Positions 31,603-35,480 of a stretch of 36,727 nucleotides of DNA are shown here, in pieces. This DNA comes from Planctomycetota bacterium. Its GTDB lineage: Bacteria; Planctomycetota; Brocadiia; SM23-32. The notes below the pieces were generated by a model, which searched no databases, had not been told where the DNA came from, and was given only the letters and a program-made list of their open reading frames with translations. The stretch is from NCBI GenBank assembly GCA_030628375.1, contig DAOVRD010000003.1, forward strand, positions 1 through 36,727, in the 5' to 3' direction. Both the position numbers and the translations under genes were made by a program. Numbering within the stretch: position 1 is the stretch's first letter; each line of letters opens with the position of its first letter.

Positions 31603-33540
31603 ATGAACCGCCACGATCAACGCTCCACACAATCCGGTGGCTCGCCCCCCGGCCACGCCCCACGAAGCGAGAGCAGTGCAGCCACGGGGCCGCGCCCACG
31701 TTGGACGTTCCTGTGTGAGCCCTACGTGGTTGTCCCGCTCGTCAACACGCTGGCCTCGCTGATTTACGTGTGGGGCGACATTGGCAGGATAAGCGCCGCG
31801 GGCGCGTTGTCCCTGCTGGTTTCGTGCCTTGCAGGCATCGGCCTCTTCTACCTGATCCTCGGGATGGTGCCGCCGCGGCGCGTGTTTGCCCTCCCGATCG
31901 CTGCGCTGCTCGCCGTAATGCTTGCCGCCATGCACGTTGCGCAGTTCATTTACTACCAGGTGTTCAAATCCCTGATCCCCGTCAGCGTCGTGGACTACAC
32001 GCGTCAACTTCCCCGGCACGGCGTCGCCACGGCGCACGAGTATTTGACCTTCTGGCACGGGGCAGCGCTCGCCGCTGCGGTGGTCGGACTCACCTGGTAC
32101 TTCCAGCGGACCATCAGGCGCATCGGGGGCACGCTGACCTGGCGCCGGGCCGTCATCGCGCTGCTTCCCTGGGCGATACTGCCGCTGGCAGGCCAGCGCC
32201 CGCACCTGAGTCTGGATCAGTATGCTCTAAGCACCCTGTCGCTGTCCTTGCGCGGACTGGGCAGAACGAACGTCCCATTCGTCCCGGATCGCATTGACCT
32301 GCCCCCACTCCACGTGGAGCATCCCATCAACGTTGTGTTCTTCGAACTTGAGTCGGTCGCGCCGGACGCGCTTCAGATCTACAACCCGGAACTGCCGACG
32401 GCCCCCCGCTGGACGGACTTCATCCGCCAGCACCCGGATGAGGTCTTCGTGGCCCTGAAGCATTTTTCGAACTCCTCGGCGAGCGACATCGCGATGGTCC
32501 TGATATACACCGGCACCGCCGCCGATGACCCCTTCGCTCTGCACAAGACGGCACCCCTCCTATGGGACTACGCCAAGAGCGCCGGCTACGACACTTCCCT
32601 CTTCATGGCGGCAGCCCTGAGTTGGGGGGATTTCGACACCAGGTACCAACACCACCACGGGCACACGAACCTGGACCACATCGCACATGCCTTCAACGCA
32701 GGCAAGCCCCTCGTGCACGACCTGAGCATGAACGACGCGGACGTCATGGGGCTCCTGGTCGAATACCTCGAGGGACGGAACTGGCAACAACCGTTCCTCA
32801 CTTGCGTCAGCCTCAAGATGCCCCACTTCCTCGGACAGGGCGCGAAGCTGAACGGATTCAGATTCCTCAACGACAGGCTGCCCAACGACCGGCTCATCAA
32901 CTACTACAATGCCATATATCACGACGATCAGTTGATGGTGGATTTCATCGAACAGATGCCGGCGGAGGTGCGGCGTAACACCGTGGTCGCCGTGCTCTGC
33001 GACCATGGAGAGGACCTGTACGGACGCGGCGTGCGGCTGGAGAACTACCATGAGGAGATCGCTCGGATTCCGTGCTGGTTCTACATCCCCAAGAACGTGC
33101 AAGAACGCCTGCGGCCGGACGCCATCGAGAACCTGCGCCACAACTGCCGCAACGTGGCGACCAGCAACCTGGATGCGCTTCCGACACTGTTGGACCTGAT
33201 GGGCCTGGCGGAGAAGGAACCGGTGGCGGACATCCTCGCCGGCCTCCAGGGCCAGACGCTGCTCAGAAAGAAGGACCCTCCCGAGTGCATCGTCATGCTC
33301 AACACCAACGACCTGCGCTCCTGGGACCGGGAGGGCTTCGCCCTGACGATGGACAACGGCACCGTGCGCTACATCTACAACATGGGGCAAGAGGGCCTGT
33401 ACGACCTGGAACGCGATCCCCGGGAAGAGCACGACCTCATGGCCGATCCCGCGTACGCCACGTACGTGGAGCGCGTCCGGCAGAAGGTGAAGTCGAACCC
33501 CTACCTGCTGCGGATCGCCGTCAAGTACGGCACGATGTAG
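31603..33540 (+). CDS. Membrane-anchored sulfatase-like (LTA synthase / phosphoform transferase) protein
   Basis: N-terminal TM helices, then NVVFFELES, KMPH, YYNAI..DD, CDHGE and LYDL..DP.E motifs of the alkaline phosphatase superfamily. Confidence 0.8.
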   Translation: MNRHDQRSTQSGGSPPGHAPRSESSAATGPRPRWTFLCEPYVVVPLVNTLASLIYVWGDIGRISAAGALSLLVSCLAGIGLFYLILGMVPPRRVFALPIAALLAVMLAAMHVAQFIYYQVFKSLIPVSVVDYTRQLPRHGVATAHEYLTFWHGAALAAAVVGLTWYFQRTIRRIGGTLTWRRAVIALLPWAILPLAGQRPHLSLDQYALSTLSLSLRGLGRTNVPFVPDRIDLPPLHVEHPINVVFFELESVAPDALQIYNPELPTAPRWTDFIRQHPDEVFVALKHFSNSSASDIAMVLIYTGTAADDPFALHKTAPLLWDYAKSAGYDTSLFMAAALSWGDFDTRYQHHHGHTNLDHIAHAFNAGKPLVHDLSMNDADVMGLLVEYLEGRNWQQPFLTCVSLKMPHFLGQGAKLNGFRFLNDRLPNDRLINYYNAIYHDDQLMVDFIEQMPAEVRRNTVVAVLCDHGEDLYGRGVRLENYHEEIARIPCWFYIPKNVQERLRPDAIENLRHNCRNVATSNLDALPTLLDLMGLAEKEPVADILAGLQGQTLLRKKDPPECIVMLNTNDLRSWDREGFALTMDNGTVRYIYNMGQEGLYDLERDPREEHDLMADPAYATYVERVRQKVKSNPYLLRIAVKYGTM

Positions 33541-33568
33541 GGCAGGGGGCTGCTGCGGTTGCGGCGGT

Positions 33569-33597
33569 TTGAATGTGCGGGGGCAGTGTGATATAGT
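33569..33597 (+). promoter_or_regulatory. Sigma70 promoter of the tRNA pair
   Basis: TTGAAT-N17-TATAGT with an extended -10 TG, 11 nt before tRNA-Gln. Confidence 0.7.
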
Positions 33598-33608
33598 GGC
33601 AAAGCGCT

Positions 33609-33682
33609 TGAGGATTGGTGTAACGGTAACACACCTGACTCTGGATCAGGCATTCCAGGTTCGAATCCTGGATCCTCAGCCA
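33609..33682 (+). tRNA. tRNA-Gln(CTG)
   Basis: Acceptor stem TGAGGAT/ATCCTCA, anticodon arm CCTGA-CTCTGGA-TCAGG, GGTTCGAATCC T-arm and encoded CCA. Confidence 0.97.
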
Positions 33683-33696
33683 CATTTGTGACCCGT

Positions 33697-33774
33697 GGCC
33701 CCATCGTCTAGCCCGGTCCAGGACCTCGGACTCTCATTCCGGAAACAGGGGTTCGAATCCCCTTGGGGCTACCA
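33697..33774 (+). tRNA. tRNA-Glu(CTC)
   Basis: Acceptor stem GGCCCCA/TGGGGCT, anticodon arm TCGGA-CTCTCAT-TCCGG, AGGGG-TTCGAAT-CCCCT T-arm and encoded CCA. Confidence 0.96.
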
Positions 33775-33926
33775 GCCTTCGCCCCTCGGTCCGCCGTACG
33801 GCGGACCCGGGGCTTCGGCCGGCAGGCCAGCTATGCCTGCACGATGAGTGCTCAACCTTGTAAGAACACAAGGGCGAAGGCTGGGCGCCGAAGCTGGCGC
33901 GCCAGCTTGGCTCGATGCGAAGGCGG
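33772..33926. repeat. Nested palindromic element between tRNA-Glu and the GIY-YIG gene
   Basis: 13-bp inverted repeat 33772-33784/33872-33884. Perfect palindromes at 33788-33807 (20 bp) and 33891-33908 (18 bp). GCCTTCGC..GCTTCGGC is mirrored by GCCGAAGC..GCGAAGGC. Confidence 0.85.
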
Positions 33927-33928
33927 CC

Positions 33929-34171
33929 ATGCGTTACGTCTACCTATTGCGTAGTCGTTCCCATCCTAAGCAGACCTATGTTGGTTCCACAGCCGACCTG
34001 GATGGGCGCCTTCAAGCCCACAACGAAGGCAAGTCGCCGCACACCGCGAAGCACTGCCCGTGGCGACTCGTCGTCGCTGTGGCATTCAGCAACGAGGAAA
34101 AAGCCCTGCGATTCGAGCATTACCTGAAGAGCGGATCTGGCCGAGCCTTCGCCTTGCGGCACTTCTGGTAA
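33929..34171 (+). CDS. Small stand-alone GIY-YIG endonuclease
   Basis: 80 aa: YVYLL...YVG.T.DL..RL..HN.G...T....PW...A...E..LK. Confidence 0.92.
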   Translation: MRYVYLLRSRSHPKQTYVGSTADLDGRLQAHNEGKSPHTAKHCPWRLVVAVAFSNEEKALRFEHYLKSGSGRAFALRHFW

Positions 34172-34194
34172 TCCTGCCTGCGGTCACATTTGCG

Positions 34195-34223
34195 TTGTCA
34201 ATTCAAGAAGATTGTGCTATACT
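34195..34223 (+). promoter_or_regulatory. Near-consensus sigma70 promoter inside the islet
   Basis: TTGTCA-N17-TATACT with an extended -10 TG. Confidence 0.6.
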
Positions 34224-34405
34224 CCTGTATGTTCGGCTCTGTGTGTATCCGCTTCGCATTGGAAGCGCCAACCTGCGGGGGAACGATGCGGATACCTCTT
34301 GCCGACCGCGGGAACACCACAGGAACCGGCGCCATGCGCTCATGCGGTATCCGGCGTTCCTTGTGCAGAACAGGGCAGGCGAACTATGTGAAAGGGGCGG
34401 GGACC

Positions 34406-35278
34406 ATGCCTAAGCGTAAGTTACGGTGCATTGGTGCCACTCTAGTTGACATAACCATCTTTCATCCCGCAGGCCGCCTGGTCCTGCTAGCCGCAGCCCT
34501 CTTGGTCTGCGTGGGCGTCATCCTCGGTATCTTGCTTGTTCGCTCTACCTACATGCAGCGAGAGCATGATCAACAGCCTTCTCCGGCTGCCGCCGAGCCG
34601 CTGGCGGCCTTTCCCCCTGCGTGGGCTACCGGAACAGACTATGGAGACCAATTGGGACACACAATTGACCGAGCCGGGCTTCACATTACAAGAAGCTATC
34701 CGATGGATCCAAACGGAGCGTGTAGTTTCTCAGCTAACAACCGGGTTTTGTTCCGCGTGCCTGACCCGGCTACATCTGCTCAGGTTTCAGCGTTCTTCAT
34801 TTCCGGGCTGGGCGAAGGCGAGACGGTCGCTGATGTTATTGAGATATGGTTTGCCACATGCGCCATCTTGGCCAGTTATATAGAACCATCGCACCAAGCC
34901 GAGTTTATGGGCTGGTTGCAAGAGGGATTCGAGAGCTTTGAGTTAACAAAGGTCACAGGCCTGCGATCTCAGGAGCGCTGGTTTGGCTCTCGGGCCCTGC
35001 GTGTTGAACATCGCTATTCAGAATTCTTGGGCTATACGATTTCTGTTGAGCTTAACGACAGGTTTCCCCCTCTCCATGACCTCAACGGGGGTGAGACTGC
35101 CAAGAGCTGGGCGGACATGCGGCTGGGCTTGACATTGGAAGAGGTTGAGGCCTTTGCGGGGCCAGGCCGCCTTCAATCAAGTATGGGCGAGAGCCGCCAG
35201 TACCATTTTGGAGAAGGTTACGCACTCGGATGGGTGACATTCATTAATGGCCGCGCTGAGACGTGGATGGCTCCCTAA
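34406..35278 (+). CDS. Hypothetical single-TM protein with a C-terminal SmpA/OmlA(BLIP)-like domain
   Basis: TM segment LVLLAAALLVCVGVILGILLV and C-terminal MRLGLTLEEVEAFAGPG. AT-richer codon usage; start uncertain. Confidence 0.6.
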   Translation: MPKRKLRCIGATLVDITIFHPAGRLVLLAAALLVCVGVILGILLVRSTYMQREHDQQPSPAAAEPLAAFPPAWATGTDYGDQLGHTIDRAGLHITRSYPMDPNGACSFSANNRVLFRVPDPATSAQVSAFFISGLGEGETVADVIEIWFATCAILASYIEPSHQAEFMGWLQEGFESFELTKVTGLRSQERWFGSRALRVEHRYSEFLGYTISVELNDRFPPLHDLNGGETAKSWADMRLGLTLEEVEAFAGPGRLQSSMGESRQYHFGEGYALGWVTFINGRAETWMAP

Positions 35279-35434: not shown

Positions 35435-35480
35435 GACTCTCATTCCAAAAACACCGGTTCAAATCCGGTTGGGGCTACCA
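35435..35480 (+). pseudogene. 3' half of a tRNA-Glu (anticodon loop to CCA), attR-like
   Basis: GACTCTCATTCCAAAAACACCGGTTCAAATCCGGTTGGGGCTACCA; no D-arm or 5' acceptor strand upstream. Confidence 0.88.

Follow-up and report, generated by a model that had tools for sequence, protein, structure and literature searches.

The stretch of DNA considered here (the window) covers 36,727 nucleotides (nt) of a Planctomycetota bacterium (GTDB lineage Brocadiia, SM23-32; GenBank assembly GCA_030628375.1, contig DAOVRD010000003.1, positions 1 to 36,727 of the forward strand), and the element in question is a cassette of about 0.4 kb, composed of a hairpin leader and the gene of a minimal GIY-YIG nuclease, that directly follows the 3′ end of a tRNA-Glu gene. 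This tRNA belongs to a Gln-Glu pair that is kept in relatives, and tRNA, cassette and downstream gene are contiguous in contigs of a cold-seep metagenome run in which 0.90 of the stretch's words are found. The tRNA pair and the cassette comprise the following features, with positions counted in the window and hairpin scores taken from a covariance model, R1, that is described below:

33569–33597, plus strand: promoter-like site TTGAAT-17-TATAGT, 5′ of tRNA-Gln and tRNA-Glu and the sole such site upstream of the nuclease gene
33609–33682, plus strand: tRNA-Gln(ctg), leading gene of the tRNA pair (ARAGORN, Rfam)
33697–33774, plus strand: tRNA-Glu(ctc), intact, with a CUC anticodon (ARAGORN; Rfam tRNA, 55.9 bits)
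33772–33774, plus strand: encoded CCA of tRNA-Glu, whose last base the cassette abuts
33767–33827, minus strand: leader hairpin 1, the family hairpin motif in inverted orientation, with a stem that takes in the tRNA CCA (R1 match of 18.8 bits, E 0.047)
33788–33807, no strand: perfect palindrome of 20 base pairs (bp) in the loop of hairpin 1, of the dispersed CGCCGTACGGCG hairpin class
33772–33884, plus strand: long-range stem CCAGCCTTCGCCC / GGGCGAAGGCTGG, closing module 1 from CCA to TGG
33879–33932, plus strand: leader hairpin 2 (GCGCC-GAAGC ... GCGAAG-GCGGC), ending on the start codon (R1 match of 25.4 bits, E 8e-4)
33891–33908, no strand: perfect 18-bp palindrome widening the loop of hairpin 2, a single copy in the genome
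33929–34171, plus strand: gene of an 80-amino-acid (aa), single-domain GIY-YIG nuclease, Slx1/UPF0213-like, of a subfamily with the C-terminal pattern SG[RH]AFAx[RK]HFW (Pfam, AlphaFold, Foldseek)

An initial annotation of this DNA had proposed that a nested structure starting on the tRNA-Glu CCA, with pairing stems, mirrored 8-mers and perfect palindromes of 20 and 18 bp, forms together with the small nuclease gene a REP-like (repetitive extragenic palindrome) system of nuclease plus palindrome at tRNA 3′ ends. Each of these structural elements is confirmed by the sequence, and the core idea survives the analysis, although the partnership between the nuclease and its repeat is not exclusive.

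The nuclease protein matches Pfam GIY-YIG (PF01541) over residues 2–70 with an E-value of 6.1e-14 (52.5 bits against a cut-off of 22.6), and a search of NCBIfam returned nothing above cut-off and one sub-threshold match. The key residues are intact, as the initial annotation had stated: Y5, G19, R27, H31 and E63 are invariant in an alignment of 23 relatives, and such residues presumably fill the catalytic roles of the fold (two tyrosines, an arginine, a histidine or asparagine, and a metal-binding glutamate). The AlphaFold model of the protein (pLDDT 95) shows the order strand-strand-helix-strand-helix-helix, for which Foldseek finds matches in UPF0213, HIGLE and Slx1 at TM scores of 0.56–0.75 and also in UvrC and I-TevI; the nuclease domains of Slx1, an enzyme that cuts branched and hairpin-like DNA structures, reach TM scores of 0.72–0.75 with 32–35% identity, and a profile search of the PDB matches 1zg2 (UPF0213) at E 3e-17. 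As far as the predicted model goes, the nearest solved folds are those of DNA structure-specific nucleases. A longer frame starting with GTG at 33848 was considered as the gene and set aside, because the homologues start at the methionine of the ATG at 33929. The earlier statement that there is no obvious ribosome-binding site is too strong: GAAGG stands 5 nt before this ATG, though it lies buried within the 3′ arm of hairpin 2. The recurrence of AGCCTTCGCC near 34145, in the last codons of the gene, is present as described (34144–34153), but it codes there for a conserved Ala-Phe-Ala whose synonymous sites are variable across 11 homologues, and the genome contains 215 copies of GCCTTCGCC; the recurrence is therefore read as codon-driven coincidence, and the repeat at 34145 was discarded as a candidate for the end of the cassette.

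The position next to a tRNA is a property of the family. The source genome of the window (3.9 Mb in 412 contigs, 64% G+C, with 51 genes for tRNA or transfer-messenger RNA (tmRNA)) yields five tblastn matches to the protein, two of which are halves of one gene at contig ends, and each of the resulting four small GIY-YIG genes directly follows the 3′ end of a tRNA on its own strand (Glu, Pro, Met and Asn). Across 41 related genomes, a same-strand tRNA or tmRNA is found 29–650 nt upstream of 21 of the 31 located matches, and an opposite-strand tRNA, in a downstream position, at one of the 31; the distribution of the gene is patchy, with any match in 21 of the 41 genomes and with this subfamily in about 10. 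A wider scan over one genome per species, using an alignment of 11 sequences of the subfamily (A2; a broader alignment, A1, was too diverse for scanning), recovered at least 568 relatives, and all counts over 80 loci given here refer to the best 80 of these. The 80 loci spread over about ten phyla, namely Planctomycetota, Verrucomicrobiota, Lentisphaerota, Kiritimatiellota, Armatimonadota, Alphaproteobacteria, Myxococcota, Acidobacteriota, Zixibacteria and one Clostridia-labelled bin. At 52 of them, a tRNA (36) or tmRNA (16) on the same strand ends 82–306 nt before the start codon, against a chance expectation of about 0.3% for a random gene; the opposite-strand arrangement at that upstream position occurs at none of the 80, and the count is 51 among the 67 loci whose upstream flank exceeds 400 nt. 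A tblastn search of plasmids gave no match to the nuclease and 2.9 million viral contigs hold two loci, which places the gene on chromosomes. The enrichment of homologues beside tRNAs that the initial annotation had anticipated is real and general, and it extends to tmRNA genes.

The other three GIY-YIG genes of the source genome belong to other subfamilies, with 37–42% identity (G000:C102:200-1250, locus L002; G000:C138:5100-5900, locus L003; and the end of G000:C371 joined to the end of C390). Their cassettes, at tRNA-Pro, tRNA-Met and tRNA-Asn, are wrapped in partial tRNA copies with arms replaced or interrupted by short hairpins, and ARAGORN calls among them two 94-nt "tRNA-Pro" genes that are tRNA-hairpin hybrids.

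The second common property of the family is the leader. In the window, positions 33772–33784 (CCAGCCTTCGCCC) are the perfect 13-bp complement of 33872–33884 (GGGCGAAGGCTGG), for which an inverted-repeat search gives 18-nt arms at 89%; inside and beyond this stem, the 8-mers GCCTTCGC (33775–33782) and GCTTCGGC (33812–33819) are mirrored by GCGAAGGC (33917–33924) and GCCGAAGC (33887–33894), respectively. The predicted RNA fold of 33772–33935 reaches −90.3 kcal/mol, compared with −73.4 ± 4.8 kcal/mol for 200 shuffles (z −3.56, with 0 of 200 as good), and an Rfam search found the two tRNAs only and no family matching the leader. When 52 leaders are aligned, the recurring part is a hairpin with the order stem, C[G/A][T/A]AGC, short loop, GCGA[A/C]G, stem; the conserved core of the leader is two inverted copies of this one asymmetric hairpin (stem-CGWAGC-loop-GCGAAG-stem), and the mirrored 8-mers of the window are the two copies. 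The covariance model R1 was built from 32 hairpin copies; in its seed, pairing holds in 96.8% of the cells and two-sided changes occur at four stem positions (31 cells versus 10 in shuffles), a covariation that is partly circular because the seed was pre-selected for pairing.

A plus-strand R1 match is located within 300 nt upstream of the start codon in 63 of the 80 loci (36 of the 53 outside the seed), and a minus-strand match upstream in 40 of the 80. Wherever both copies are present, the minus hairpin stands 5′ of the plus hairpin (35 of 35 loci), and at all 28 loci that have a tRNA together with a minus match, the minus hairpin starts between −7 and +2 from the last base of the tRNA. Beginning as it does at the tRNA end, its stem takes in the CCA; when G-T and A-C pairs are counted in the plus- and minus-strand hairpin copies, 28 of the 31 G-T pairs fall on the outermost pair, which involves the last A of CCA. 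An equivalent CCA...TGG closure is found in relatives and in plain tRNA trailers of the source genome. With two inverted copies of an asymmetric site, one for each strand, the arrangement would point to a role at the level of DNA rather than to one played purely in RNA.

What accompanies the nuclease is hence a hairpin motif, and the perfect palindromes to which the initial annotation had assigned this part are not conserved. They were examined as the core of the leader and rejected, being absent from the leaders of other loci; the closest homologues have AAG where the 20-bp palindrome sits and a 4-nt loop, TTCA, where the 18-bp palindrome sits. Judged by this comparison, the two palindromes are local, lineage-specific insertions in the loops of the conserved hairpins. 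The CGCCGTACGGCG core of the 20-bp palindrome has 21 genome copies against about 1.4 expected (about 15-fold), and the 20-bp insert has copies of about 90% identity at unrelated loci of two same-genus genomes. Besides, CGCCGTACGGCG (e.g., at C4:10220 and C69:2369) stands at the heart of other dispersed repeats, of which there are at least two families (6 and 4 near-identical copies), and hairpin copies with the 20-bp palindrome occur within long low-complexity 7-base arrays (GTTATTC, GCTCGTG and others) at loci L045–L047 of same-genus genomes (G001:C57, G002:C222 and G002:C129). One metagenome contig has an identical leader start with another hairpin inserted at the same point, 33783; together with the palindrome inserts, this makes hairpin loops seem favoured landing sites for other hairpins. 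The weak R1 scores of both window hairpins are ascribed to the secondary palindromes in their loops, and a copy with such interrupted, weakly scoring hairpins may be an old one.

Signs of movement come from several kinds of comparison. At an orthologous tRNA-Pro(ggg) site, 587 nt lie between the CCA and TGGTAGAGC in genome G017, of another genus, versus 17 nt in the source genome, with syntenic flanks that are 71–72% identical on both sides; the 587-nt insert contains a leader and a nuclease gene together with the decayed 3′ end of a tRNA and another leader that has no gene, and the 17 nt of the source genome are a plain hairpin. Similarly plain hairpins, running from the tRNA's own CCA to TGG and followed by a shared AGAGCAGG-rich sequence, are seen at cassette-free tRNA genes (G000:C284:8666-8682 and the C102 and C330 trailers), and at the single comparable site the cassette replaces exactly this hairpin. 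On the protein tree, the tRNA label switches at least 27 times among 59 labelled tips, compared with 31–41 times in shuffles, on a tree of 80 columns that is poorly resolved. Single genomes hold several copies at different genes: in G035, they lie 3′ of tRNA-Pro(tgg), tRNA-Pro(cgg) and the tmRNA gene, and in G011, 3′ of tRNA-Val and tRNA-Pro. Copies broken by stop codons occur in G007 and G008. At the same tRNA-Glu site, the same-genus genome G003 carries a GIY-YIG gene of a different subfamily (38% identity) behind a diverged nested leader, which is present in G002 without a gene; the source genome also has gene-less leader pieces behind tRNA-Val(cac), tRNA-Leu(taa) and tRNA-Ser(gga). Short repeats of the tRNA end, of about 12–19 nt, stand behind the gene in 6 of 48 loci, versus 1 in the upstream control, and count among these signs as well.

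Two further observations may be mentioned at this point. A Lentisphaeria bin (L076) and a Clostridia-labelled bin (L077) contain identical proteins behind the same duplicated leader at different tRNAs (Val and Ala), which reflects either recent transfer or a binning error, and an Armatimonadota contig (L048:825-1274) has a second GIY-YIG gene directly downstream of the cassette, so that two cassettes stand in tandem.

As regards expression, the interval 33450–34450 has two promoter-like sites (33569–33597 and 34195–34223) versus a shuffle mean of 0.3, and none was found between 33598 and 34194. Together with the hairpin over the weak GAAGG Shine-Dalgarno sequence, this suggests that the nuclease gene would be expressed by read-through from the tRNA promoter, at a low level. 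RNA runs contain small shares of the stretch, and the one compared with the region, X15, covers the tRNAs and part of a sulfatase gene (with 12 differences) and nothing of the cassette.

With moderate confidence, the locus is read as a small mobile, probably selfish cassette, in which two inverted hairpins and a minimal GIY-YIG nuclease gene are inserted together at the CCA end of a tRNA or tmRNA gene. The observed basis of this reading is the adjacency to tRNA and tmRNA genes, the exact junction, the co-varying hairpins, the occupied and empty states of one site, the gene-less copies and the switching of tRNA partners. Mechanistically, the nuclease would recognise its own hairpin in single-stranded or extruded DNA and cut beside it, by analogy with SsnA, the hairpin-repeat nuclease of Neisseria meningitidis, and with Slx1-type nucleases. 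Where the acceptor/CCA hairpin of the tRNA is broken at its foot, repair could then copy a template that bears the cassette, and such template-copying repair might sometimes leave a duplicated piece of the tRNA behind. The gene, probably lacking a promoter of its own, would depend on read-through from the tRNA promoter, and translation could be kept low by hairpin 2, in which the weak Shine-Dalgarno sequence is buried and which adjoins the ATG.

Several points weigh against this reading. The activity, transcription and transposition of the cassette are inferred from sequence and analogy. The GIY-YIG fold only hydrolyses DNA, and an 80-aa protein of this fold with no DNA-binding module leaves the route of cassette insertion unexplained. 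At the window itself, a cassette-less form of the tRNA-Glu site was not found, and the contigs of three DNA runs contain no joints of such a form; no relative is syntenic at this tRNA-Glu locus, the tRNA pair being all that is held in common, and neither the sulfatase gene nor the downstream 192-aa gene occurs near the tRNA pair in the loci of 11 relatives. The window also has a 46-nt repeat of its tRNA, unlike the repeats of about 13–21 nt in other members of the family, and 16 of the 67 well-flanked loci have no tRNA. The published SRM repeat pattern of Ssn nucleases has 0 matches on either strand of 61 leaders, and its 35 matches in the source genome compare with 44–57 in five shuffles.

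The dispersed hairpins add to these points. R1 finds the motif at no fewer than 46 places of the source genome at E-values up to 0.7 (at least 45 at E-values up to 0.06), in scans that scored 150 of about 4,100 candidates. The solo copies that the initial annotation had asked for do exist, in that 13 of the 46 are free hairpins, but the other 33 are located at the apex of GTAG-tagged REPINs that are served by a RAYT (REP-associated tyrosine transposase) of their own. This GTAG REP/REPIN family has 206 tags of the form TGTAGC[GT]CAG[CG]CGCC, often at contig ends (e.g., C40:4516 and C128:11596-11700), and includes one Y1_Tnp (RAYT-like) gene at G000:C70:35242-35415 that is flanked by seven GTAG REPs (region C70:34830-35600); the CATAGC...GCGACG hairpin motif at the apex of the REPIN is the one found in the GIY-YIG leaders. 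With most solo copies inside RAYT-served REPINs, the partnership of nuclease and repeat is not a clean one. Hairpin counts over the 41 genomes are highest in gene carriers (49, 33 and 22), but they follow the gene loosely: G030 and G020 have 24 and 12 hairpins without the gene, and G029 has none with it. The association is accordingly loose, and it is confounded by the REPINs and by the limit of 150 scored candidates.

These dispersed copies bear directly on a first alternative, in which a domesticated host nuclease acts, in the manner of SsnA, on a genome-wide hairpin in single-stranded DNA, with the tRNA position supplying constitutive transcription and the cassette being immobile. Such a host function would fit the 46 or more genomic places of the motif, the counts of 49 and 33 in two gene-carrying relatives, and an intact open reading frame (ORF) lacking its own promoter-like site, and it has a precedent in the modulation of transformation by SsnA through its repeats (PMC11893778). 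However, most of the motif copies sit in RAYT-type REPINs, and an immobile host gene accords poorly with a patchy distribution, pseudogenised copies, several copies per genome at different tRNAs, frequent switching of tRNA partners, and an orthologous site that is occupied in one genome and empty in another. The domestication of a host enzyme is therefore considered unlikely.

A second alternative arises from the DNA to the right of the cassette, where the following features are found:

34195–34223, plus strand: promoter-like site of the next gene (10 of 12 matches, with a TG extension)
34406–35278, plus strand: orphan ORF of 290 aa, membrane-anchored, with no Pfam match
35435–35480, plus strand: pseudo-copy of the 3′ part of tRNA-Glu, from anticodon loop to CCA, 85% identical to 33729–33774

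The promoter-like site limits the right end of the cassette to about 34172–34194. The 46-nt pseudo-copy starts 1.26 kb behind the cassette, is not called as a tRNA by ARAGORN, and precedes an inverted repeat, T-rich in its tail, that resembles a terminator; its T-stem has changed on both sides in a compensated manner, from GGGG/CCCC to CCGG/CCGG. Between the intact tRNA-Glu and this copy stand only the cassette and the promoter-led 290-aa ORF, for which the query used gave no match in 40 relatives. Bracketed in this way, the whole 1.66-kb stretch looks like inserted DNA, of an islet-like kind as judged from its layout.

In this second alternative, the cassette would be a passenger or relic of an integrative island that entered tRNA-Glu at the anticodon loop by means of a tyrosine integrase. 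The 3′ parts of tRNA and tmRNA genes are classic attachment sites of integrases, and a 46-nt repeat from anticodon loop to CCA is the classic footprint of a tyrosine-integrase island; the orphan gene enclosed by the repeat is likewise in its favour. By contrast, searches of the ORF list and Pfam reveal no integrase within or close to the bracketed 1.66 kb, and no integrase family is represented among 143 frames downstream of the cassette at 76 family loci, where the neighbours are ordinary, unrelated genes. A junction held to the CCA at single-base level in 28 of 28 loci is also at odds with an island, as are the two loci in 2.9 million viral contigs and the scarcity of tRNA-end repeats behind the gene, which occur in only 6 of 48 loci (within 1.2 kb, versus 1 in the upstream control), measure about 13–21 nt and lie 38–900 nt behind the gene. 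An island origin of the cassette is held to be quite improbable, and the 46-nt repeat of the window may stem either from cassette insertion or from an older integrase island.

That the leader acts only as RNA, as a tRNA trailer and 5′ untranslated region controlling 3′ processing or the mRNA, with a protein acting on RNA or tRNA ends, is scarcely credible: the strong predicted fold with a stem that includes the CCA, the hairpin that covers GAAGG and touches the ATG, and the pairing of CCA with TGG in plain tRNA trailers are in keeping with it, but the inverted asymmetric copies, of which one transcript would show the motif once and its complement once, are typical of DNA-level sites, Rfam has no match, the nearest solved folds are DNA structure-specific nucleases, and SsnA is described as neither binding nor cutting RNA (PMC11893778).

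If the cassette is indeed mobile and selfish, a stronger version of that reading can be put forward, tentatively and as the less probable part of the proposal: it may be an autonomous element in which a bare GIY-YIG hydrolase takes the role of a RAYT or IS200-type enzyme, recognises the hairpin in single-stranded DNA, inserts at the feet of tRNA and tmRNA acceptor/CCA stems and in other hairpins' loops, and mobilises gene-less copies in trans. Such an enzyme could be the missing partner of "orphan" palindromic repeats. Should the mobile-cassette reading hold, a 0.4-kb element that ranks with the smallest autonomous ones imaginable would be spread over bacteria of many phyla, homing to the exact 3′ end of tRNA and tmRNA genes with no integrase, and what is known of Ssn nucleases as repeat-associated enzymes would be extended to a mobile element whose target is defined. 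The same reading would account for many of the hairpin trailers, split tRNAs and pseudo-tRNAs that stand unannotated in metagenome-assembled genomes, and tools for single-stranded DNA could draw on the family as a natural set of tiny nucleases programmed by hairpins. It would also become testable how a hydrolase-only enzyme achieves site-specific insertion.

Among known systems, the Slx1, HIGLE and UPF0213 (YhbQ-like) proteins provide the best sequence and fold matches of the 80-aa protein. In contrast to Slx1, the present protein has no RING or zinc-finger domain and no Slx4 partner, and its gene behaves as a mobile cassette rather than as a repair gene. The free-standing SegB gene in the tRNA cluster of phage T4 (PMC2330249) is similar in being a GIY-YIG gene beside tRNA genes and preferentially inherited selfish DNA, and Seg-like genes share the presence or absence at a conserved site, seen here at tRNA-Pro(ggg); however, Seg proteins have a DNA-binding domain and reside in phage genomes, whereas the present family consists of a bare 80-aa catalytic domain in chromosomes, behind a conserved leader of two hairpins that is locked onto the CCA. 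The REP/REPIN-RAYT systems, as described in PMC2817692, PMC3116915 and PMC3733652, have in common with the cassette the short palindromic repeats, their inverted pairs and gene-less copies, a single nuclease gene flanked by its repeats, and the nesting of hairpin in hairpin, and CGTC-tagged REPs are reported to have no dedicated transposase (Di Nocera 2013, PMC3733652); they differ in that the enzyme here is a GIY-YIG hydrolase and not an HUH/Y1 transposase, and in that the number of free hairpin copies (13) is low.

To our knowledge, the Ssn nucleases are the only characterised single-domain relatives, and a full-text literature search returned no paper that deals with small GIY-YIG genes located at the 3′ ends of bacterial tRNA or tmRNA genes. 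SsnA of N. meningitidis is described as a 94-aa single-domain GIY-YIG protein that binds its hairpin repeat as single-stranded DNA, cuts a few bases upstream of it and ignores double-stranded DNA (Chenal et al. 2025, PMC11893778). NTS/SRM repeats flank the SsnA gene, and in this the authors note an architecture like that of insertion sequences; the main text of that paper does not mention tRNA, and its supplementary table scores the Phycisphaera and Lentisphaera genomes as having no SsnA homologue (PMC11893778). The likeness to the present cassette comprises the single GIY-YIG domain of 80–94 aa, the corresponding residues (Y6, Y17 and E64 in SsnA versus Y5, Y17 and E63 here), and, in a broad sense, the location of the gene beside oriented hairpin repeats that are also dispersed in the genome. 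The difference is that here both hairpins stand upstream of the gene as an inverted pair, in a cassette fixed to tRNA and tmRNA 3′ ends. Because of the SRM mismatch and the absence of tRNA from that main text, the cassette is likened to the Ssn/SRM pair, with which it may share its way of working, and is not filed as a member of Ssn (cd10448). What is new here is an Ssn-like module of nuclease plus hairpins with a defined target at tRNA ends, which apparently constitutes an undescribed family.

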